This document shows positions 1,922 to 12,514 of a DNA stretch of 41,024 bases, one piece after another; positions within the stretch are counted from its first letter, which is position 1, and the number at the start of each line of letters is the position of its first letter. A program made the position numbers and the translations under genes. The stretch lies in the UHGV virus genome UHGV-0070243; one strand, written 5' to 3'. Below the pieces are notes generated by a model that was not told where the DNA came from, ran no database searches, and was given only the letters and a program-made list of their open reading frames with translations. This DNA comes from a virus.

Positions 1922-2419
1922 TCAGTGCCACGATTTTTGCTTCTTCAGTGAATCGTATTGCTGCTCGCAGAATTCCCCTGCGATACGATACTTTTCAGCC
2001 TCAGCTGCTGTTGCGTTGTAAACTCGGTTGCTTTCTTCAAGCATGTCGGCGAGCACACCGATGACCTTGCTGGCTGGCGTGCCAGGGGGGAAAGATCCGG
2101 TATAGTGTTCGGCGAGCCGCCTGGTTTTGTCAAGCTCGGCGCGCATGCTGTCAGCAGCGGAATTAGCATACTCAGCATCAGCACGCGCCGCATCGATACG
2201 GGATTGTGCTTCACGTTCAATTTGTGTTTTCTCCTGCTCACGCTGTGACCTTAACTTATCATCAGCCTGTTTCTGATCTTCCTTCGCCTGCGCATACCCG
2301 GCATCGTACTGACGGATGCCGTGCACATTCCAGGCAACAACTCCTGATATGACCAGAACAGCAAGCATCGCCACGATAAGTAACTGTTTACGGTATGCTT
2401 TTACAAATGCCCAGATCAT
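1922..2419 (-). CDS. Rz-like i-spanin (165 aa)
   Basis: N-terminal TM helix then charged coiled-coil periplasmic domain; start ATG overlaps endolysin stop (ATGA); last gene of lysis cassette. Confidence 0.75.
1945..2193 (-). CDS. Rz1-like o-spanin lipoprotein embedded in Rz in another frame
   Basis: internal ATG at 2191-2193 gives [17 protein letters not shown]... with lipobox LTAC and Pro-rich mature part; classic Rz/Rz1 embedded architecture. Confidence 0.5.
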   Translation of the reverse strand: MRRVLMLSMLIPLLTACAPSLTKPGGSPNTIPDLSPLARQPARSSVCSPTCLKKATEFTTQQQLRLKSIVSQGNSASSNTIH

Positions 2420-3045
2420 ACCGCCAGTACCTTACTTGCTGTGATGTACCGCGCACGCCGGTCGTCGATACCGTTTCTGCCACCATTGATAATCAGAGTT
2501 ACACGTGCAATATCGCCGGTATACTTCATGCATCCTTTGCTGGCGAAGAACCACGCCGCGCTACGAGCCGCATATTCGTCCTGCGCCAGCAGTTCAGGGC
2601 TCTCCAGCAGGTCAACCTTCAGACCGTTTCCGCAATCACGATAGTTATTCAAACCGGTAATCTGGATAAGTCCGCGCCCTCGGTAATTCCAGCCATCACC
2701 AGGGGCATTGTTCCCCATGCGTTTGCTGTATACCAGATTTGCGATCGCGCGCTGGCGCTCAAGTGGCAATGGTGGTTCACCAGCACGGCGCCCCAGTGCA
2801 TTAGCCTGCCCCTGAGTGAGACGCCCAGCCCGAACGAAGTTAGCCAGTCCGCTGACACTGTAGTTGAAATTCTCCTGCAACCTGGTGAAGCCCCCAGACT
2901 CATGCCCGACTTGAGCAATAAACATTGCCTGATCTTCTGCTTTGCTGATACCAAACTCTTTCATCGCAGAAGTTATATGCGAGAACCAGCGTGCGGCCAG
3001 TGCCTCGCTGATACCAGCAGCTCGCTGGAATTGTTTAATCTCCAT
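2416..3045 (-). CDS. endolysin, glycoside hydrolase family 19 (chitinase-like lysozyme), about 209 aa
   Basis: internal start MEIKQF... with GAGG RBS; motifs [10 protein letters not shown] and [11 protein letters not shown] recalled as GH19 phage endolysin signatures; ORF-track ORF 2416..3210 trimmed to ATG at 3045. Confidence 0.8.
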
Positions 3046-3343
3046 GTTTAGACCTCGATACTTTAAAAATTTGAACGACGTTACCGCGCGTTTTAATAAC
3101 CGCAGCCAGCATGACAGCGTTGATAATGACCTCAGATAAATCCACAGCCATTGGCGTACGTAACCAGATTGCATAGGCGACTCGAACAGGAATACTGGCC
3201 GCAGCAACAATCAGGAAATAAGCAAGCCATCCTCCCCACCTTCGATGTTGAGAGCCGTTACGCCGGAATGTGACAACGCGAATTGCTATGCCAGTGCAAA
3301 TAACTGCATTGGTGATAAGCAAAAAAAACTCATGCGTTACCAT
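3035..3343 (-). CDS. holin/antiholin-like small membrane protein (102 aa)
   Basis: three hydrophobic segments; overlaps endolysin start by 11 nt; sits between holin candidate and endolysin. Confidence 0.5.
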
Positions 3344-3734
3344 CGTCTTTTCTCCCCGGAATTAACTCGCGTGGATTATCGGAACGGTGATAGAGCCATA
3401 TACCAATACGCACAGCGACAATTGCTGACACGAATGCGCCTGCAGAGAAAACAATCCCTTTTTCAAAAGAGTCCTGCGTGATGGTAGGGATCAGGCTGGC
3501 TATGCCGATAAGAATTGATGCTGCTGGTTTGTAAAAGAGAAGGCCACAAAGAAAGCTGAGCATCGAAAGGAGCACCCGGCGACGGATGGGGTACTCTACT
3601 GCAGAGGTAACAAAAATTACCGCCCCAGCCAAAGCCCCTAAAGCAACCTCCGGAGGGACACCTGCAATAACCGCAGCAAGAGAACCAAAACTAAGCAACT
3701 GATTTAATTGCTCACTTGTTACTTGAGCAGACAT
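3330..3734 (-). CDS. holin-like membrane protein (134 aa)
   Basis: multiple TM helices, charged C-terminus; first gene of lysis cassette; overlaps next gene by 14 nt. Confidence 0.55.
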   Translation of the reverse strand: MSAQVTSEQLNQLLSFGSLAAVIAGVPPEVALGALAGAVIFVTSAVEYPIRRRVLLSMLSFLCGLLFYKPAASILIGIASLIPTITQDSFEKGIVFSAGAFVSAIVAVRIGIWLYHRSDNPRELIPGRKDDGNA

Positions 3735-4015: not shown

Positions 4016-4042
4016 CCCGCAAAATATTGCGGGCTTTTTTTT
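4016..4042. terminator. hairpin CCCGCAA-aata-TTGCGGG followed by T8 on the plus strand; abuts the tail spike stop codon
   Basis: 7-bp stem, 4-nt loop; T-run only on plus strand and A-run before it, so strand of action is ambiguous. Confidence 0.4.
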
Positions 4043-7000
4043 AACGTTCTTCCAGAGACTGAATCCGCTCTTTTATCTTATCCATTTCTCTGCGCTGCCA
4101 TGCTGCCTCGATATAGAATAAGAGATCAGGTCTGACCCCCCATCTAGATCCTGCTGGCGTTATTTCAACGCGCTCAATGATGTCTTCCATTACCATCACT
4201 GGATTATCATCCTCATCAACAATGATGCTCCCGTCATTATCAGTCAGTGGCATTTCCCTTTGGCCAGTAATGACGTCATCATATACTGCGGGATAATCGT
4301 CATAGCAAAGAAACGCATAGCGGCATGTTGTGCTTTCTTCTTCCATGAGTCCGTGAGAAATAAGAACATCACGAAGTTGCTGCGCGATTACACCATGATG
4401 TATCCTCGCCCCTTCTTCCCCCTTTATAGCGACAGCGTTCAGCCATTTATAAGCGATATACCTGACGTCACCCCAGGCATCCAGCAATGCTTCGTCAGGA
4501 GAGACCGGCTCTGTCTTTAATGTTCCGTCACTGGTAACCACAGGATTGGAGCCAAGATAAACTGTCGAGAACCTGTTTCCCGGACCACCAAGAGCATTTA
4601 CATTATCAAGATAAGGTTTAACATCTCCGTTCTCAAAAAGATGTTCGAGTGCGTTATATACCGCGCGACGTGGAGTACTGCTTCCGGAACCATGCAACGT
4701 TATCATTGCACCATCTGCTGAAGACGTTGTTTCACCGCCGCTAACGATTAATCTCTGAGCGGTAACATCATCAGACGGTACTTTCTTCGCAATAATGGCG
4801 TAATTACCCTCAAGTTTGACTTCCGCGCGAACTTGTCCTGATGTACCTGCATGGACAGTCAGTGACTGGACGGCAACATCATCTGTGAAATCAACGGGTA
4901 CAGGAACCGTCCTCACGCCTGACGTCGACATAAAAGTAGGAAGCGTTCTGTTAGGAGTGGCTCCGTAGACAAAATCCCTTGAAACAAATTCTTCCTGTTT
5001 AATTTTCACCCTGAAACAATACAAATCAGCCGGGTGACCATCGTGAACATAAGGATATTTTCTGTTGTTATCCCCTATGCTCCATGGGTTTAGAAAGTCT
5101 TCCCCACCGAAAATGTAGTACAGCCAGTTGTCTTTGATACAAACTGAACCAACACCAACCGCAGAGTTAACTATTCCGCCCTGATAAATCTGATCAGTAA
5201 CATTAACCCACTCTACATTATCCAGACTCCACTCATTGACGTTAACTCTGGTCATAAATGTTCTTGGATAATTTCCTGCATAACGGTTATCAGGTTCTCC
5301 TCCTTCCCACTCACCAAATGCGCGCTCACTGCCAAAAATAATCAGCTCATCGCCAACTTTGGCAAAAGGAAGGTTTGAGTGATGAACATTATTTGGGAAG
5401 CGAAGAGAATTCCATGATGTACCTAAATCAGAGCTTCTGTGCAATGAACTACCGGGTTGAGTACTTAATGTCCCCCTGGTCGTCAGATACAGAATGCCAT
5501 CATAATATTTTACACATGGCTCAGATGCATTCGCCTCATATTCTGCAGGTATGCGTCTGCGAACAAAGCTACCAGGAGAACCGAAAGCATCAGAGAAATA
5601 GAGTATCCCAAGCTCGCGTGGACCAATATCACCATTATGGTAGCCAACAGCAAAACTGTTATCGCTAATCGTCGCAAAACTGTGAATCTCAGTAACAGGA
5701 GTGCTTCCGTCAACAAAAGAAGGAATAGTTCCAAGACTGGTTTTTCTCCATGGTGACGAGTGAAATGATGTACCAAAACTCCAGTATCTACCCTCGTTAT
5801 TCTGATCCACATCCTGGGTATTTTGCGTCGTAACTGTAAAAGTATTTTTATCAATAACAGTAGTCACCGTCATATTCCCGGTAACACCTGTAACACCAGA
5901 GTTTGAGAAGTTGACAAAATCACCAGCAAATAATCCGTGATCAGTAATGCGAATATAAGCGACTTGCTGATTTGCTGCTTTCGTTATACCACCATAAACG
6001 CGAAGGCTGCGACTCATTGGGCGATCCCACAACTCTGCAACCTGCAGTTTATTTCCGCTCACGGTCCGCGTCTCAATTACAGCAAAAAGGCGATTTCTGA
6101 CAACCCCCATACTCATGCAGTGATAGTTAACTGTGGGATAGTTTTCATGTAAATCTGTAAGCCATTCCGGCGTTGTCCAGGTCTTCCCGTCATCTCCTGA
6201 GCGAACCCATGCAACATGGAGGTTATTTACACCATGGCGGTCTCCAGCCATAAAAGGCGCATAGATGACATTGTCATATACAAACGTTTTATCCTGCGTC
6301 CAGGCGTTGTACCACGGTGTATCTGTAATTTTAAATAACTCTCCCTGGATAAAATCTTCAGAAGCATAAAAAAGAGGCTGACCCGGTATTCTCTCAAATA
6401 AAAAACGAGCATTTTTAAATCGGCTGACATCCGGAAGAGTTGATACTTTAAAAGTAAGCCCTAATCCGTCAATTTTATAACCTGGAGATGAGGCTTCAAG
6501 GCACGCGCTTATTGCAGTGGAATCGTCATTTATACCATCACCAACAGCTCCAAAATCTTTGGGGCTAATAGCATCACGCATTTTATCCTGGAACGTTCGG
6601 TACACAGCCCCAGAACCATACTGAATAAACCAACCAAAACCACCAACAACCCCGGCGATTGCAGCATCGACATAATTACGCATTGAGCGATTATTTACAG
6701 CGTCCTGTTCAAGTGATGGATCTGCAAGGTTAGAAATTTTGTTTTGCTTTGCATCGTAATATTTTGCAAGCAAAGATGGTTTCATCAATGCACGTCTGAA
6801 CCACCCAAAACATTGCTGGATCAGCATCGTCAGGTAGTCAAAAGCATCTTCATGCACTTCGGGGAAAAATTTTCCCTGATTGCGAAGGTCTGTCTCCTGC
6901 ACTACATCAAGCACACGATCTATCGTAATTCGCCATCCAGTAGCAAGCGGCGACGGAAGAACCACAGAACCGCCACTATAAGTTCCCGCCCCAGTTACCG

Positions 7001-7160
7001 TATAACCGGTATCCAGAACCAATTCTGTTACGTTCCCGTTCAGGTCAGACACCTGAACAACCAGGTCTGATTTTCTGAAAATTCGAAAAGTATACGGAAA
7101 CGATGTCGTAACGCCGTTACCTGTGTATTCGTTGTGGTCAACTTCGGTTGAGACCGTCAT
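4041..7160 (-). CDS. tail fibre/tailspike (1039 aa): T7 gp17-like N-terminal virion-binding domain, Asp-box beta-propeller, C-terminal intramolecular chaperone (S74-like) domain; candidate endosialidase-type depolymerase
   Basis: N-terminus EYTGNGVTTSFPYTF...VVQV resembles the T7 tail-fibre N-domain (memory); two Asp-boxes SGDDGKTW and SSDLGTSW; C-terminal region LDNVNALGGPGNRFSTVYLGS...RWGVRPDLLFYIEAAWQRRE resembles the auto-cleaving chaperone of endosialidases and long tail fibres. Confidence 0.8.
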   Translation of the reverse strand: MTVSTEVDHNEYTGNGVTTSFPYTFRIFRKSDLVVQVSDLNGNVTELVLDTGYTVTGAGTYSGGSVVLPSPLATGWRITIDRVLDVVQETDLRNQGKFFPEVHEDAFDYLTMLIQQCFGWFRRALMKPSLLAKYYDAKQNKISNLADPSLEQDAVNNRSMRNYVDAAIAGVVGGFGWFIQYGSGAVYRTFQDKMRDAISPKDFGAVGDGINDDSTAISACLEASSPGYKIDGLGLTFKVSTLPDVSRFKNARFLFERIPGQPLFYASEDFIQGELFKITDTPWYNAWTQDKTFVYDNVIYAPFMAGDRHGVNNLHVAWVRSGDDGKTWTTPEWLTDLHENYPTVNYHCMSMGVVRNRLFAVIETRTVSGNKLQVAELWDRPMSRSLRVYGGITKAANQQVAYIRITDHGLFAGDFVNFSNSGVTGVTGNMTVTTVIDKNTFTVTTQNTQDVDQNNEGRYWSFGTSFHSSPWRKTSLGTIPSFVDGSTPVTEIHSFATISDNSFAVGYHNGDIGPRELGILYFSDAFGSPGSFVRRRIPAEYEANASEPCVKYYDGILYLTTRGTLSTQPGSSLHRSSDLGTSWNSLRFPNNVHHSNLPFAKVGDELIIFGSERAFGEWEGGEPDNRYAGNYPRTFMTRVNVNEWSLDNVEWVNVTDQIYQGGIVNSAVGVGSVCIKDNWLYYIFGGEDFLNPWSIGDNNRKYPYVHDGHPADLYCFRVKIKQEEFVSRDFVYGATPNRTLPTFMSTSGVRTVPVPVDFTDDVAVQSLTVHAGTSGQVRAEVKLEGNYAIIAKKVPSDDVTAQRLIVSGGETTSSADGAMITLHGSGSSTPRRAVYNALEHLFENGDVKPYLDNVNALGGPGNRFSTVYLGSNPVVTSDGTLKTEPVSPDEALLDAWGDVRYIAYKWLNAVAIKGEEGARIHHGVIAQQLRDVLISHGLMEEESTTCRYAFLCYDDYPAVYDDVITGQREMPLTDNDGSIIVDEDDNPVMVMEDIIERVEITPAGSRWGVRPDLLFYIEAAWQRREMDKIKERIQSLEER

Positions 7161-7926: not shown

Positions 7927-8613
7927 ATGACTGCTAACGTAACCCCATCTGTTTTTCATTTTGAATCAGAAGCAACCATTCGAGCCATTGTTATTGATGG
8001 AAATCCTTGGTTTGTTGCCAAAGACGTTATTAAAGCTCTTCAACTGACAAACCCCACTATGTCAATAAAATCTCTTGATGATGATGAAAGGGCTAAATTT
8101 AACTTAGGCCGTCAAGGCGAAACCAATATTATCAACGAGTCAGGCCTCTACACACTGATCCTCCGCTGCCGCGACGCAGTGACACCAGGCACTATCCCCT
8201 ACCGCTTTCGTAAATGGGTTACAGGTGAGGTTCTTCCTCAGATCCGCCGCACCGGAAGTTACATTAAAAACTCGCTCCCGCAGGAAGAACGCATAAAGAT
8301 GGTTGCCGACCAGGTAGCCAACGCCACAGCATCAGCAGTGATGCAGGCAATGAAGATAGAGAACAAAACCTACAGTGCCCCGCTGAAGCCCGGCTACCGC
8401 AGTCTGATTCATTCGCCGTCGGGTGTTCTCGGCCTGACGGAGCACTCACTGCTGATGAATCTGCTGAACCAGTTACAGGAAGACGGGCATGACGTATCGG
8501 GCGCGGCGGCGGAGCTGACCACCATGTTCTGCTACATCGTCGGTGTGAGCAAATGCCTGCGTGATATCCAGACGCACGCGGAGTACATCAACGACAAGGC
8601 TGGGTTCTTCTGA
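7927..8613 (+). CDS. antirepressor, Bro-N domain + ANT/KilA-C C-terminal domain (228 aa)
   Basis: Bro-N signature FHFESEATIRAIVIDGNPWFVAKDVIKAL...ESGLYTLILRCRDA...RFRKWVTGEVLPQIRRTGSY; RBS AAGGTGA; ORF 7774..8613 trimmed to ATG 7927. Confidence 0.8.
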   Translation: MTANVTPSVFHFESEATIRAIVIDGNPWFVAKDVIKALQLTNPTMSIKSLDDDERAKFNLGRQGETNIINESGLYTLILRCRDAVTPGTIPYRFRKWVTGEVLPQIRRTGSYIKNSLPQEERIKMVADQVANATASAVMQAMKIENKTYSAPLKPGYRSLIHSPSGVLGLTEHSLLMNLLNQLQEDGHDVSGAAAELTTMFCYIVGVSKCLRDIQTHAEYINDKAGFF

Positions 8614-8638
8614 CGGGCGGCGGCACAGGGATGTGCTT
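8380..8638 (+). repeat. left arm of about 258-bp inverted repeat (about 93 percent identical to 10099..10356 on the other strand)
   Basis: encodes the near-identical last 78 aa of both antirepressors plus about 25 bp of 3' flank (shared GGCACAGGGATGTGC). Confidence 0.8.
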
Positions 8639-8679
8639 CTGACATAATCATTTGCGGTGTGATGTAGATTCACGTAAGA

Positions 8680-8694
8680 TTACCTTAAAGGTAA
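8680..8694. promoter_or_regulatory. operator-like palindrome TTACCttaaaGGTAA
   Basis: perfect TTACC-N5-GGTAA 26 nt upstream of the 8721 start. Confidence 0.6.
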
Positions 8695-8720
8695 ACCATG
8701 GGTTTACATGAGGAGGAGAT

Positions 8721-8930
8721 ATGGGATTTTGGTTCGCTCGTACAAAAACGAGGGATAATGCACCCAGCCCTCAGGCAAAAAATGCAGAAGTTCCGGCGTC
8801 AGCGCAGGTTAACAAGCGTGGTGGAGTATATATCTCATCACAGCAAATTTCTGAGCTTCCTGAGGTTAAGGAGATGCGTCGTCTCGCTGCTGCAATTGTT
8901 AAACAGGATCTTGCCACTGTAAGGAAATAG
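8721..8930 (+). CDS. hypothetical small soluble protein (69 aa), first gene of two-gene cargo operon
   Basis: strong SD GAGGAGGAG 4 nt before ATG; stop TAG overlaps GTG start of next gene by 1 nt; preferred over alternative-frame ORF 8698..8922. Confidence 0.5.
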   Translation: MGFWFARTKTRDNAPSPQAKNAEVPASAQVNKRGGVYISSQQISELPEVKEMRRLAAAIVKQDLATVRK

Positions 8931-9796
8931 TGTTGTTAGCTCTTCTAATTATCCCCATTCTGGTTAGTGGTTATATTATGATAACCGCTAACCAGTATCA
9001 TTATTTCCGTTTATACCGACATGAAGGCCAGCTTCTTTATATGAAAGTAGCTGCATTAGGTACATATTGCCTTGTTGCATCAGTAATAATTGCAGCCGCT
9101 ATAAAATATAAATGGCCTGATTTTCACCTAGTTCACGATATGGTGGAAACTTTTAATGTAACATCAAAACCAGAAACAGATAGAATTTACATGTGGCTGC
9201 TTCTTCTCTCAGCCACATCCATTTGCTTCTCTTTGTGTTATGTGTCTGTTGTGTGGGTGAAAGATTTTCTTCTTGGTTGTTTTTATAAACGTGATATTTA
9301 CGAGCAAAAAACAGAGGCAATGAAGGCCAGAGTACTGCGAAAAACTTACTCGCAAGGTTCTTTAGACTTACTATTGCTTGATGCTATTGAATCGGATCCT
9401 AAACGACCAATGTTGATTACTTTATCATCAAACAAAGTGTATGTTGGAATAATAAATGGTTCTGGTGAACCAACGGAAAATCAGGGTCCGCATCAGCACA
9501 TATCTTTTGTTCCTTTAATGTCAGGATACAGGAACAAAGAAAACTTATCTGTCACATTCACTAATGCTTATCCAGGAGAAATACAGGTCAAGCGGACTGC
9601 AGCAATAAGAGGAATTAGCAGAAAGAAAGTGCCAGGACTTGAGATCATGGTGTCTATTGACGAAATAAGTTATATATCATGGTTTGATTTTGAAGTATAT
9701 AAAGCAACAAATAACAAAGTAGAATCCAGGGGGCACGTTATTCGTGTTACCAAAAATGGAAGAAATATATATCAAAGAAATAGCAAAAAAGAATAG
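8930..9796 (+). CDS. hypothetical membrane protein (288 aa): three or four N-terminal TM helices plus about 160-aa soluble C-terminal domain
   Basis: GTG start with RBS AAGGAAA; visibly AT-rich codon usage unlike flanking phage genes; followed by terminator. Confidence 0.6.
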   Translation: MLLALLIIPILVSGYIMITANQYHYFRLYRHEGQLLYMKVAALGTYCLVASVIIAAAIKYKWPDFHLVHDMVETFNVTSKPETDRIYMWLLLLSATSICFSLCYVSVVWVKDFLLGCFYKRDIYEQKTEAMKARVLRKTYSQGSLDLLLLDAIESDPKRPMLITLSSNKVYVGIINGSGEPTENQGPHQHISFVPLMSGYRNKENLSVTFTNAYPGEIQVKRTAAIRGISRKKVPGLEIMVSIDEISYISWFDFEVYKATNNKVESRGHVIRVTKNGRNIYQRNSKKE

Positions 9797-9817
9797 CCCG
9801 CGCTGCGGGCTTTTTTG
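9795..9817 (+). terminator. rho-independent terminator after membrane-protein gene
   Basis: AGCCCGC-gct-GCGGGCT followed by TTTTTTG. Confidence 0.7.
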
Positions 9818-9888
9818 TGGACGAAACAAAAGCCAGTGCTACACTCATTGACGCCACATTGAGGTGGCTTATAGATGGAAATTTCACA

Positions 9889-10050
9889 ATGAAAAAAGCA
9901 TTTGCTGCACTGTTCGTTTTGTTGTCTCTGGTAGCTTCAACTCAGGCCTTTGCCGGTCGTTGTCAGCACGACAGCGATACCGCCGCTGACGGCTCCCGCT
10001 GCGGTGGGCGTTCTGCGGATTCCCGCCCGGGCGGCGGTGGCATTCGTTAA
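9889..10050 (+). CDS. small secreted Cys-containing peptide (53 aa precursor)
   Basis: signal peptide MKKAFAALFVLLSLVASTQAFA then 31-aa Gly/Arg/Asp-rich region with 2 Cys; ORF 9817..10050 trimmed to ATG 9889; weak RBS. Confidence 0.4.
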   Translation: MKKAFAALFVLLSLVASTQAFAGRCQHDSDTAADGSRCGGRSADSRPGGGGIR

Positions 10051-10055
10051 AAACA

Positions 10056-10073
10056 AGGCCGCGAAAGCGGCCT
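10056..10073 (-). terminator. hairpin AGGCCGC-gaaa-GCGGCCT with U-run on the minus strand; terminator of ant
   Basis: 7-bp GC stem; minus-strand transcript continues into TGTTTTTAA; adjacent palindrome GTGACATGTCAC at 10074-10085. Confidence 0.55.
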
Positions 10074-10098
10074 GTGACATGTCACGATAGTTCCTTTT

Positions 10099-10356
10099 TG
10101 CACATCCCTGTGCCTCCGTTCTGTCAGAAGAACCCTGCCTTGTCATTGATGTACTCTGCGTGAGTCTGGATATCACGCAGGCATTTGCTCACACCAACGA
10201 TGTAGCAGAACATGGTGGTCAGCTCCGCCGCCGCGCCCGATACGTCATGCCCGTCGTCCTGCAACTGATTCAGCAGATTCATCAGCAATGAGTTCTCCGT
10301 CAGGCCGAGAACACCAGACGGCGAGTGAATCAGGCTGCGGTAGCCGGGCTTCAGCG
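10099..10356 (-). repeat. right arm of about 258-bp inverted repeat (partner of 8380..8638)
   Basis: reverse complement of 8380..8638 matches with a handful of substitutions. Confidence 0.8.
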
Positions 10357-11068
10357 GATAACCATAACATTTTGTCTGTGTTTTAATTGCCTCACGAAGC
10401 GCATCTAACATCTTGACTGCCACTTCATCATTCTCTGATGCAGATCCAGCAGGGAGATACTCCCCTTCAAGCGGAACCCGAGCAACAAGAGACAACGCTT
10501 CGGCGAATTGATCTTCATCAATTTCTTTGTACGAACAGCCAAAATGAGATTTCAGTGACGACCACATGGTGATCATCGCCTTAGCCTGTTTTTCTTTTGG
10601 CAGAGACTGACCGCGACTCATGACGAGTTGTTTAATGGCTTCCTGCTGTTCAGTGGTTATTTTACCCGGCAACGCCTTTTTAGCTTTGCGTGGGTTAACC
10701 ACATGGCCTTTAGTCCAGTACTCGTAGAGCACATCGTCACACTCTTCCTGATACTGGATTACCTTGTCGCGGATTTCAGGACGGACTTTGTTAGGGCTGA
10801 TGGTTTGCAACCAGCCAGCAAGTTTGCGAAGTGCCAAACAAATAATCTCACGGCGCTGTTCATCCCCAGGAAGCTGCATTGTGATTTTCACAATGCAGGT
10901 TTTAAACCGCTGCTTCATTTTCGTAAACTGTGAAGCCCAATCCATACCCATTCCCTCAACGATAGGCTTCATTGGTGTGTACGGTTCGCCGTTGTGATTG
11001 ACAACATAAAGTTCTACGCCGTGGAATGGCACGTTGATAGTAGATACCGCTGTTGCTATACTCGTCAT
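10124..11068 (-). CDS. ant: antirepressor Ant-like (314 aa): Ant N-terminal domain + shared ANT/KilA-C C-terminal domain
   Basis: N-terminus VPFHGVELYVVNHNGEPYTPMKPIVEGMGMDW and KVRPEIRDKVIQYQEECDDVLYEYW recalled as P22 Ant-like; downstream of arc-like gene as in P22 immI. Confidence 0.7.
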   Translation of the reverse strand: MTSIATAVSTINVPFHGVELYVVNHNGEPYTPMKPIVEGMGMDWASQFTKMKQRFKTCIVKITMQLPGDEQRREIICLALRKLAGWLQTISPNKVRPEIRDKVIQYQEECDDVLYEYWTKGHVVNPRKAKKALPGKITTEQQEAIKQLVMSRGQSLPKEKQAKAMITMWSSLKSHFGCSYKEIDEDQFAEALSLVARVPLEGEYLPAGSASENDEVAVKMLDALREAIKTQTKCYGYPLKPGYRSLIHSPSGVLGLTENSLLMNLLNQLQDDGHDVSGAAAELTTMFCYIVGVSKCLRDIQTHAEYINDKAGFF

Positions 11069-11308: not shown

Positions 11309-11428
11309 TTCATATCTCCTTAGCCCCACCGTGGGGCAAAACAATTGTCACACCGTGCGTCATTGATGTCAAGCACACGGTGAGGCATACTTCAATCATT
11401 GCAAGTAACTCAATATTTGGTGAAGAAC

Positions 11429-11860
11429 ATGAGCAGAGAAGATCCACAACTAAGGATCAGACTTCCCGTTGAAGTAAAAGAAAAAATAGAAATTTCTGCA
11501 AAAGCCAATAAGCGATCAATGAACGCTGAAATAGTACAACGTCTTGACACCAGCTTTCTGAAAGATATTCATGAAGATGACGTAATTTCTGCTTATGAAG
11601 CAAAAATTATTGCAAACAATGCACGGCATGAAATATCAAATATTATTTTCAAAAGAACCTTTAATGAAATTAATAAGAAAATAACACTTGGACATACAAG
11701 TTTTTATATAAACCTTAATGACCTTGAACTGGAATCACTTGCAGATAATGATTACCAGATCATCTTTGAAAAAACATTTAATAAGCTCAATGAACTAGGT
11801 TACATCATCTGTGAAAACTCATGGGATGCAGATGGTTTTGGAATTGAAATACCTGAATAG
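11429..11860 (+). CDS. mnt: Mnt-like ribbon-helix-helix repressor with about 60-aa C-terminal extension (143 aa)
   Basis: MSREDPQLRIRLPVEVKEKIEISAKANKRSMNAEIVQRL resembles P22 Mnt N-terminus (DDPHFNFRMPMEV...ANGRSMNSELLQIV); divergent from arc; AT-rich. Confidence 0.65.
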   Translation: MSREDPQLRIRLPVEVKEKIEISAKANKRSMNAEIVQRLDTSFLKDIHEDDVISAYEAKIIANNARHEISNIIFKRTFNEINKKITLGHTSFYINLNDLELESLADNDYQIIFEKTFNKLNELGYIICENSWDADGFGIEIPE

Positions 11861-11950
11861 GAAGAACAAAAGGCGTGTACATATTACACGTCTTTAATAC
11901 AATTGAAAAACGCCACATTACTGATGTATGTTACAACAAGGAGCGATATT

Positions 11951-12514
11951 TTGAAAACCATATCTATATTAAAGGTTGCATTAGGCGTCGCTATTATTTT
12001 GACTCTCTCAATATTGTTTTATTTTTACCACAAAAAAACAGCTATTGCTCTTGATGGTCACGCGGCAAACTCATTTTTCTCAGAGTACATAGTGCCGCTA
12101 TCAGGAAGCGGTATAACAAATAAATATACTGACTATGACATCAAATATGGAATTGATGATGGGGAGACTATTGTATTACATGTAATCATTAAAAACCTAA
12201 TGACAGTAAATAAAAATACAGACTTCAACGATAAAAATACAATACATCACAACAACAGCAAAACATTAATTTCTTATAGTAGCAACATCTATACGGATAA
12301 ATACCTAAAATACATCTCAGAAGATACAATAAAAGCAACCAGCGAAAAGTTAAAAAACATATATTGTGCATCCGGCAGTTTTCACAAATTATCGCCGCAA
12401 GAGCGTTTATTCTACGAAGCAAGAAAACAACGTAAGTCAATAATATTACATTATTATGCTGATTCAGGGGAGTCACTCATATTTAATATTGGGGTTTCCC
12501 CTGAATCATGCTAA
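11951..12514 (+). CDS. hypothetical membrane-anchored protein (about 188 aa) in the position P22 sieA occupies; candidate superinfection-exclusion/abortive-infection protein
   Basis: TTG start with perfect SD AAGGAG 7 nt upstream (alternative ATG 11924 lacks an RBS); one TM helix ISILKVALGVAIILTLSILFYFY; very AT-rich; sits between mnt and the core-protein operon. Confidence 0.5.
   Translation: MKTISILKVALGVAIILTLSILFYFYHKKTAIALDGHAANSFFSEYIVPLSGSGITNKYTDYDIKYGIDDGETIVLHVIIKNLMTVNKNTDFNDKNTIHHNNSKTLISYSSNIYTDKYLKYISEDTIKATSEKLKNIYCASGSFHKLSPQERLFYEARKQRKSIILHYYADSGESLIFNIGVSPESC

Follow-up and report, generated by a model that had tools for sequence, protein, structure and literature searches.

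A mobile two-gene cassette in an Escherichia coli prophage pairs a small basic protein with a membrane protein predicted to carry an Sm-like domain

The DNA analysed here, virus genome UHGV-0070243 (41,024 nucleotides; hereafter the window), is an Escherichia coli prophage that carries at positions 8721 to 9796 two overlapping genes, which we call A and B. We find that A and B form a mobile, strictly paired, self-contained cassette of only 1.1 kb that sits in the accessory and defence slots of unrelated mobile elements, and that they belong to a large and unannotated family. In B, three transmembrane (TM) helices are followed by a predicted cytoplasmic domain of the Sm/LSm/Hfq fold. This domain architecture is novel, while the prophage two-gene module with a membrane effector is a known kind. 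As for function, which we read from context only, we lean toward a membrane-acting conflict module, that is, a defence, exclusion or toxin-antitoxin (TA)-like system, and we put this reading at slightly less than an even chance. The features of the cassette are as follows.

8721 to 8930, plus strand: gene A, ATG start, 69 amino acids (aa)
8930 to 9796, plus strand: gene B, GTG start, 288 aa, predicted inner-membrane protein; alternative start TTG at 8933
8923 to 9008, plus strand: predicted RNA structure at the A/B junction, a helix of 8923-8932 with 8999-9008 around a 15-bp hairpin of 8960-8974 with 8981-8995
8933 to 9280, plus strand: predicted membrane domain of B, with TM1 at aa 2-20, TM2 at aa 34-61 and TM3 at aa 81-117, from hydropathy, structural model and conservation
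9362 to 9730, plus strand: predicted cytoplasmic Sm/LSm/Hfq-fold domain of B (aa 145-267), one helix at the N terminus followed by five bent strands, with aa 215-238 as an insertion

An earlier reading of the DNA letters without database searches (the sequence-only reading) had proposed genes for proteins of 69 and 288 aa at this position, the first with a strong Shine-Dalgarno (SD) sequence and a stop that overlaps the GTG start of the second. Each of these elements is present. RefSeq annotates the same two coding sequences (CDSs) in E. coli E23 as "hypothetical protein", with 100% identity over the query; the SD AGGAGGAG lies at 8711-8718, 2 nt 5' of the ATG of A and with its GGAGG core at 4 nt; and the stop codon of A, TAG at 8928-8930, ends in the G with which the GTG of B begins. 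The TTG at 8933 may be the true start of B, because 96% of family members begin one codon downstream of the GTG. Both genes evolve under purifying selection when set against relatives that are 82-94% identical in protein sequence (ratio of nonsynonymous to synonymous substitution rates, dN/dS, 0.03-0.22, with A alone given as 0.0-0.22), which together with their deep homologues places A and B far beyond chance open reading frames (ORFs). The idea that they are chance or decaying frames without function, for which one could cite an annotation that never goes past "hypothetical protein", is already refuted by the low dN/dS, the thousands of full-length homologues, the conserved synteny and the confident fold, and we give it practically no weight.

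The cassette recurs in a wide range of mobile elements. A and B occur together in 28 of 5426 complete E. coli genomes (A only in two more), in 26 Salmonella plasmid records and in 33 IMG/VR contigs, and a tblastn search of 50,697 phage records with B returned 10 matching records. In the P2-like Salmonella phages SEN4 and SEN5 and in Klebsiella phage ST15-OXA48phi14.1, A/B lies between the P2-type replication gene A and the portal gene Q, and many Salmonella prophages likewise carry it in the gpA-gpQ region, which in P2 is a hotspot of anti-phage systems (Rousset et al. 2022, PMC9122126). The Klebsiella phage (locus L023, 3286-5995) has the pair as gp13 and gp14, followed by a 69-aa gene and then by the defence gene bSEFIR (gp16, PADLOC 6.9e-103). 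In Cronobacter phage phiES15 and in lambdoid prophages of Citrobacter, Pectobacterium and Kosakonia, A/B is found between the integrase gene (int) and the attachment site (att), and further copies lie among insertion sequence (IS) elements and CbtA toxins. On the single IncC conjugative plasmid that was examined, pSTY1-2010K-1587 of Salmonella (locus L067, 3872-9065), the pair lies between a methyltransferase gene and the gene for a 547-aa RecD-like helicase (PADLOC typeIV_RecD 2e-50 / PDC-S68), with mer genes adjoining. In a set of 19 diverse loci, the pair has mainly integrases, transposases and CI-like repressors as neighbours. Its recurrence at places that hold defence and accessory genes (the P2 gpA-gpQ hotspot, beside bSEFIR, int-att ends and IncC plasmids) gives the sequence-only reading partial support.

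The family has been catalogued before, in PHROGs and in Table S5B of Rousset et al., in each case without a name. The latter lists E. coli relatives, unnamed and with no Pfam assignment, as entries #57 (75 occurrences) and #43 (93 occurrences) (PMC9122126). Protein 1 of entry #57 is a B homologue (MFALLIIPLLVSGY...ISGYRDKD) and protein 2 an A homologue, while entry #43 holds only a B-like protein, of the P2 type. Both entries belong to the same family as A/B but to different subfamilies, and they come from P2-like phages as opposed to the podovirus-type prophage studied here. Since the family motif is absent from the table of cloned systems in that survey, #57 and #43 were apparently not tested there (PMC9122126).

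The two genes are also strictly paired. Hidden Markov models (HMMs) of the two proteins were applied to every locus retrieved; the A profile was built in part from sequences tested here, but not from the 33 IMG/VR loci. Wherever a locus has upstream DNA and an intact B (~60 loci), A lies directly 5' of B on the same strand, at a gap of -1 to about +20 nt, or of 42 nt in one Pseudomonadales metagenome-assembled genome (MAG) in which the B start is uncertain. These loci span Enterobacterales, Betaproteobacteria, Alteromonadales, Pseudomonadales and Acidobacteriota, and two B genes at contig edges were excluded from the judgement. No intact B lacking A was found among the loci examined. The reverse does occur: A is intact beside a truncated or frameshifted B in three loci (L028, L014 and L016), and in E. 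coli 4/4 (NZ_CP023826, locus L008, 5020-5967) A is kept and the place of B is taken by a short ORF together with a DUF2335 protein that has two TM helices at its C terminus, A being there either an orphan or the partner of another membrane protein. One Arsenophonus copy has decayed, with A and B both broken. Remnants with A only and decayed B genes beside an intact A, with no locus that holds an intact B only, fit a harmful B that is restrained by A. In two IMG/VR loci (L041 and L042), A is nearly identical to that of the window (synonymous divergence, dS, 0.02) and B stands at a dS of 0.5, which points to a recombination breakpoint at the A/B junction.

This junction is predicted to fold into a stable RNA structure. 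The helix strand 8923-8932 contains the SD and GTG of B as well as the TAG of A, and the fold has a minimum free energy of -35.4 kcal/mol (z -4.7) that none of 200 shuffled sequences equalled. Enterobacterales relatives retain the 15-bp hairpin inside the helix at protein identities as low as 46%, and in Citrobacter it has survived two-sided changes. In the alignment, 80% of the hairpin cells are paired compared with 27-61% in slid controls, and 7 pairs are altered on both sides; we take this as moderate support for conservation, since coding constraints confound the pair count. On the simplest reading, the junction helix would enforce translational coupling, with B being made only when the ribosomes of A open the helix.

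The same observations raise the possibility of an addiction module whose main role would be to stabilise the prophage or plasmid and not to halt other phages, with B as a membrane toxin and A as a labile antitoxin kept in excess through coupling. This explanation draws on the position of the small protein first, the start/stop overlap and the SD-sequestering helix, as well as on the A-only remnants and the lack of intact B-only loci; the pair is found on IncC plasmids and beside CbtA toxins, and its counterpart in the equivalent slot of phage TL-2011b is a YafO-family TA toxin. Type II TA operons resemble A/B in having a small upstream gene that overlaps or is coupled to a larger downstream gene, in their mobility and in their orphan upstream copies. 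However, A has no recognisable DNA-binding or antitoxin domain, and B, with 288 aa and a conserved soluble domain, is unlike the known membrane toxins, which are short peptides; nor does either protein contain a known antitoxin or toxin domain of the type II systems, among whose toxins a protein of three TM helices and an Sm domain is not known. We consider addiction unlikely as the explanation for the cassette, while giving it real weight, and TA and defence roles are not mutually exclusive.

Protein B finds no match in Pfam, NCBIfam, PADLOC or PDB sequences, and among PHROGs it matches only families of unknown function (phrog_3630 and, with its C-terminal half, also phrog_23864). A word-indexed search with B returned 28 clusters, all from Enterobacterales. 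An exhaustive profile search of 1.84 billion representatives returned 2338 at E <= 1e-3, 901 at E <= 1e-10 and 123 at E <= 1e-30; the 2338 representatives stand for clusters at 50% identity, and the family has at least this many. Nearly all of the best 150 of the 2338 matches are full length (~250-300 aa), and the architecture is stable: the 255 proteins retrieved include no A-B fusion and no extra domain, and just three have a C-terminal extension. Genome matches to B include Symbiopectobacterium, Arsenophonus, Yersinia, Brachymonas, Bowmanella, a Pseudomonadales MAG and two Acidobacteriota MAGs. Among 92 diverse B homologues there was no meaningful match in Pfam, PADLOC or PDB sequences, and none carries an LSM or Hfq Pfam domain. 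Searched against PADLOC-DB 2.0, these 92 yielded one chance-level AbiEii match (E = 0.0094, a single member); A and B themselves yielded none, and the phage and plasmid versions of the pair likewise remained without a match. Profile searches of PDB sequences with the B and A families gave chance matches only.

The sequence-only reading had allowed B three or four TM helices, and hydropathy, an AlphaFold2 (AF2) model and the family data agree on three. TM1 contains a conserved LLIPILVSGY motif in which P9, L11 and G14 are conserved, and conservation extends to the cytoplasmic loop that follows and to the start of TM2 (R30, G33, Q34, L36, Y37 and G44). Family-wide charge counts (+1.4 in loop 1, -0.95 in loop 2 and +3.0 in the segment after TM3) obey the positive-inside rule, from which B is predicted to be N-out/C-in with its Sm-like domain toward the cytoplasm. 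We also considered B as a class I holin, whose topology (three TM helices, N-out/C-in) it would fit, and rejected this identity because B has 288 aa and a folded domain as opposed to ~100 aa; a role as the lysis holin is likewise rejected, the lysis cassette of the window lying elsewhere (~1922-3734).

The predicted topology bears on a further alternative, superinfection exclusion, in which B would keep phage DNA from crossing the inner membrane while the cell survives, like P22 SieA or HK97 gp15, and A would be an assembly or stability factor. P22 keeps sieA at an immI-type position next to its tailspike gene. A/B occupies an immI-like position next to a tailspike gene as well, B is a predicted inner-membrane protein, and the carriers are almost exclusively temperate elements. 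Yet the best-conserved parts of B are cytoplasmic (the Sm domain and loop 1), whereas the periplasmic loop varies across the family. The occurrence of the family across phyla, very different phage types and plasmids argues against recognition of one injection apparatus, and no SieA-type similarity appeared in the phage collection, where none of the 10 records that match B is P22 or a relative of it. Exclusion of this type seems distinctly doubtful to us.

The AF2 model of B, built from an alignment of 92 sequences (predicted local distance difference test, pLDDT, 88.6; predicted template modelling score, pTM, 0.79), begins with long helices at aa 2-30, 33-61 and 81-117. Two short helices come next, then the segment aa 145-251, in which one helix precedes five bent strands, and a final helix; past the Sm domain the chain ends in one helix and a disordered tail. 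The soluble domain of the model has the N-terminal alpha-helix and the five strongly bent antiparallel strands by which the Sm fold is recognised, and a structure search of BFVD returned Sm-like matches, which were weak. Conserved positions in this domain are K169, Y171, G173, P181, E183, P195, S198, G199, Y200, R201 and Y214, with K169, Y171, S198, G199, R201 and Y214 invariant. Aligned with hhalign, the B family scored a probability of 0.2% against E. coli Hfq and 0.1% against MscS, neither of them significant, with hand-entered query sequences for Hfq and MscS. The modelled similarity of B to Sm and Hfq proteins is therefore at the level of the fold only. The Sm-like domain and the size of the family are new relative to the sequence-only reading.

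Despite the shared fold, B lacks the Sm1/Sm2 or Hfq sequence motifs and gives no profile match to Sm/LSm/Hfq proteins. It differs from them further in that its domain is fused to three TM helices, is on average acidic and has 24 aa inserted between beta4 and beta5. MscS-like channels share with the B model the order of three TM helices and then an Sm-like beta domain in the cytoplasm. The middle domain of MscS is Sm-like (SCOP b.38) and ring-forming, and Sm proteins form rings. The likeness of B to MscS is one of architecture only, as neither B nor its 92 homologues match the MS_channel Pfam model, and the C-terminal alpha-beta domain that closes the cytoplasmic cage of MscS is missing from the B model.

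Sm and Hfq folds usually bind RNA, and this suggests another use for the cassette, as lysogenic-conversion cargo outside defence. B might then be, for example, a membrane-tethered Sm/Hfq-like binder of RNA or of a small ligand that alters host physiology, envelope stress or gene expression to the advantage of the lysogen. Such a role would agree with the lack of any defence homology among our matches, and P2 hotspots are known to hold non-defence cargo too (PMC9122126). It sits less well with the missing Sm1/Sm2 or Hfq motifs and with the average acidity of the Sm domain, and the strict pairing with a small partner and the spread over many mobile elements fit conflict systems better. We regard conversion cargo as an improbable explanation, albeit one to be kept in sight.

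Protein A is a soluble, basic protein of 69 aa (isoelectric point 10.4) with a conserved core, V.V...G.V.I....I..LPEVKEM...A..IV, that corresponds to a beta-hairpin and a helix. It matches phrog_5739 and has no match in Pfam, NCBIfam, PADLOC or PDB. Pfam, NCBIfam and PADLOC yielded nothing meaningful for 16 of its homologues either, among which there is no Pfam match at E <= 1 to the antitoxin DNA-binding folds RHH, HTH, AbrB and Phd. The assignment of A as an RHH or AbrB-like protein was rejected, being without profile support. A profile search with A returned 80 clusters. Small genes 5' of distant B homologues encode the core '..V.V...G.V.I....I......K......A..IV', which we see in Providencia, Citrobacter, Pectobacterium, Yersinia, Brachymonas, Bowmanella, Acidobacteriota and Pseudomonadales. 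Averaged over the family, A carries a charge of +3 and is usually basic, and the Sm domain of B carries a charge of -5 and is usually acidic. Many A homologues of ~70 aa (P0201, P0208-P0213, P0232 and others) are wrongly named "multidrug ABC transporter ATPase" in databases.

If A/B is a membrane-acting conflict module, we propose that it protects its host or its element by acting at the inner membrane, whether through abortive infection, exclusion or a TA-like action, with B as a ring-forming effector and A as its partner. A would be translated first, and ribosomes ending A would open the helix over the SD and start of B, such that B would be made only together with A. The Sm-like domain would assemble B into a 6- or 7-fold ring beneath the membrane, and with it 18-21 TM helices would come to lie side by side, in an architecture that recalls a small MscS-type channel. 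The basic A would bind the conserved cytoplasmic face of B, with its usually acidic Sm domain, and either keep B inactive or act as the infection sensor; the elements KVYVG, EPxE, SGYR and Y214, along with the TM1-TM2 cytoplasmic loop, may make up the site through which a partner or ligand controls the membrane part. At infection, the trigger could be that A is lost, titrated or modified, or that a phage ligand binds the ring, and triggered B would leak or block the membrane and stop phage growth. A more far-reaching version, which we hold to be rather unlikely, would make B the founding example of a widespread group of Sm/Hfq-like rings, anchored in the membrane and serving innate immunity as sensor and effector in one. 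Placed in the cytoplasm at the point of phage genome entry, the ring would detect a phage nucleic acid, a phage protein or the loss of A, and detection would gate the attached assembly of 18-21 helices. On this version A/B would be a new defence system that puts the Sm fold to a new use.

There are precedents for such a design in lambda RexA/RexB and in gp30/gp31 of mycobacteriophage Sbash, which like A/B are prophage pairs of one soluble and one multi-TM protein. Both are encoded at an immunity or accessory location and have a soluble partner that controls a membrane channel, a logic that for A/B is only proposed. RexB differs from B in having four TM helices and no soluble domain, RexA has 279 aa compared with 69 for A, and there is no homology between the pairs. 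More generally, the sequence-only reading had A/B as a candidate exclusion, abortive-infection or TA module. The modular nature and the slots speak for that proposal, whereas homology does not, as A and B show none to known exclusion, abortive-infection or TA families in Pfam, NCBIfam or PADLOC.

Several observations weigh against a conflict module. No member of the family matches a PADLOC, Pfam or NCBIfam model, and the literature that we searched, including the DefensePredictor paper and its supplements, holds no description or motif of the A/B family. At the 19 diverse loci, PADLOC candidates are scattered and not dense, in a count made without background correction. The near-identical A proteins found with divergent B proteins (dS 0.5) indicate loose A-B matching, and the Sm domain of the B studied here has a net charge of 0. 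That B forms rings, that it has pore activity and that A binds it are predictions. Transcription of A/B may read through from the antirepressor-like gene upstream, in which case the cassette could be repressed in the lysogen.

We regard A/B as a good candidate for a new anti-phage or TA-like system. Should it prove to be anti-phage, it would constitute a new and widespread defence or exclusion system with at least 2338 clusters at 50% identity, found in Proteobacteria and Acidobacteriota and carried by P2-like, lambdoid and podovirus-type prophages and by IncC resistance plasmids. Its component, a membrane-tethered Sm/Hfq-type ring, would be new to known systems, and two unnamed E. coli P2-hotspot entries as well as PHROGs 3630 and 5739 would gain a function. 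Should it serve mainly in addiction, it would bear on the stability of prophages and of IncC multidrug-resistance plasmids.

The cassette is bounded in the window by a leader and a terminator.

8614 to 8720, plus strand: intergenic leader with two overlapping palindromes and the SD of A
9795 to 9817, plus strand: intrinsic terminator, hairpin 9795-9811 (AGCCCGC-GCT-GCGGGCT) followed by TTTTTT; bidirectional, with an A-run upstream

The leader palindromes (TTACCTT-A-AAGGTAA at 8680-8694 and GTAAACC-ATG-GGTTTAC at 8691-8707) correspond to the operator-like site that had been ascribed to the operon. The palindromes are real, but they are not the operon's own: TL-2011b and E. coli 4/4 have a conserved copy of the leader with other cargo behind it, and this makes the leader a part of the phage slot as opposed to the cassette. 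A simple scan of 8614-8720 finds no good sigma-70 match, nor does a scan find a terminator between the upstream Bro-N gene and A, and on these grounds a promoter of the operon's own in this phage is only putative. The clean terminator reported earlier is confirmed as a hairpin with a T-run, and is bidirectional in addition. The operon had also been called AT-rich, a description that suits B (36% GC) and not A (47%), given 47.7% for the prophage.

The prophage itself is of the podovirus type, is integrated beside yfgH/yfgI and encodes a T7-gp14-like core protein. The features that surround the cassette are as follows.

4041 to 7160, minus strand: tailspike gene, annotated by RefSeq as an endosialidase catalytic beta-propeller protein
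8345 to 8614, plus strand: left arm of an inverted repeat, 270 nt, formed by the 3' end of the Bro-N antirepressor gene
10123 to 10392, minus strand: right arm of the inverted repeat, formed by the 3' end of the P22-Ant-type gene

The endosialidase tailspike suggests that the phage is specific for a polysialic-acid capsule, possibly the K1 capsule. Around A/B we find a Bro-N antirepressor-like gene, a P22-Ant-type gene on the opposite strand and an Arc-like gene, in keeping with the immI-like block described earlier. The description of A/B as cargo also stands, and more precisely as an exchangeable cassette: in the comparison with the 50,697 phage records, matches were confined to the flanks of the A/B region, and the equivalent slot of TL-2011b holds a 59-aa and 181-aa pair that RefSeq names as a YafO-family toxin. 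The two arms of the inverted repeat are 90% complementary and derive from two different antirepressor-like genes, whose Bro-N-type (plus strand) and P22-Ant-N-type (minus strand) proteins have a near-identical C-terminal domain of ~89 aa. The repeat encloses exactly 8615-10122 (1508 nt), which contains A, B and a gene for a 52-aa protein with a signal peptide, and because it brackets the cargo so exactly it could allow inversion or cassette exchange.

The 52-aa protein (9892-10050) has a signal-peptide-like N terminus and a Gly/Arg-rich tail and matches phrog_14503, a "membrane associated protein" in the moron category. Related phages conserve its gene regardless of the cargo, and after the gene a terminator-like hairpin is called at 10073-10056 on the minus strand. 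Further downstream, at 11399-12514, lies a second AT-rich cargo pair (30-34% GC). Its first protein, of 153 aa, has an Arc-like N terminus and a C-terminal part without assignment (phrog_1388), and its second, of 203 aa (phrog_8033), has a weak ThsB/TIR-like match in PADLOC (E = 0.006). This pair may be another accessory or defence module.

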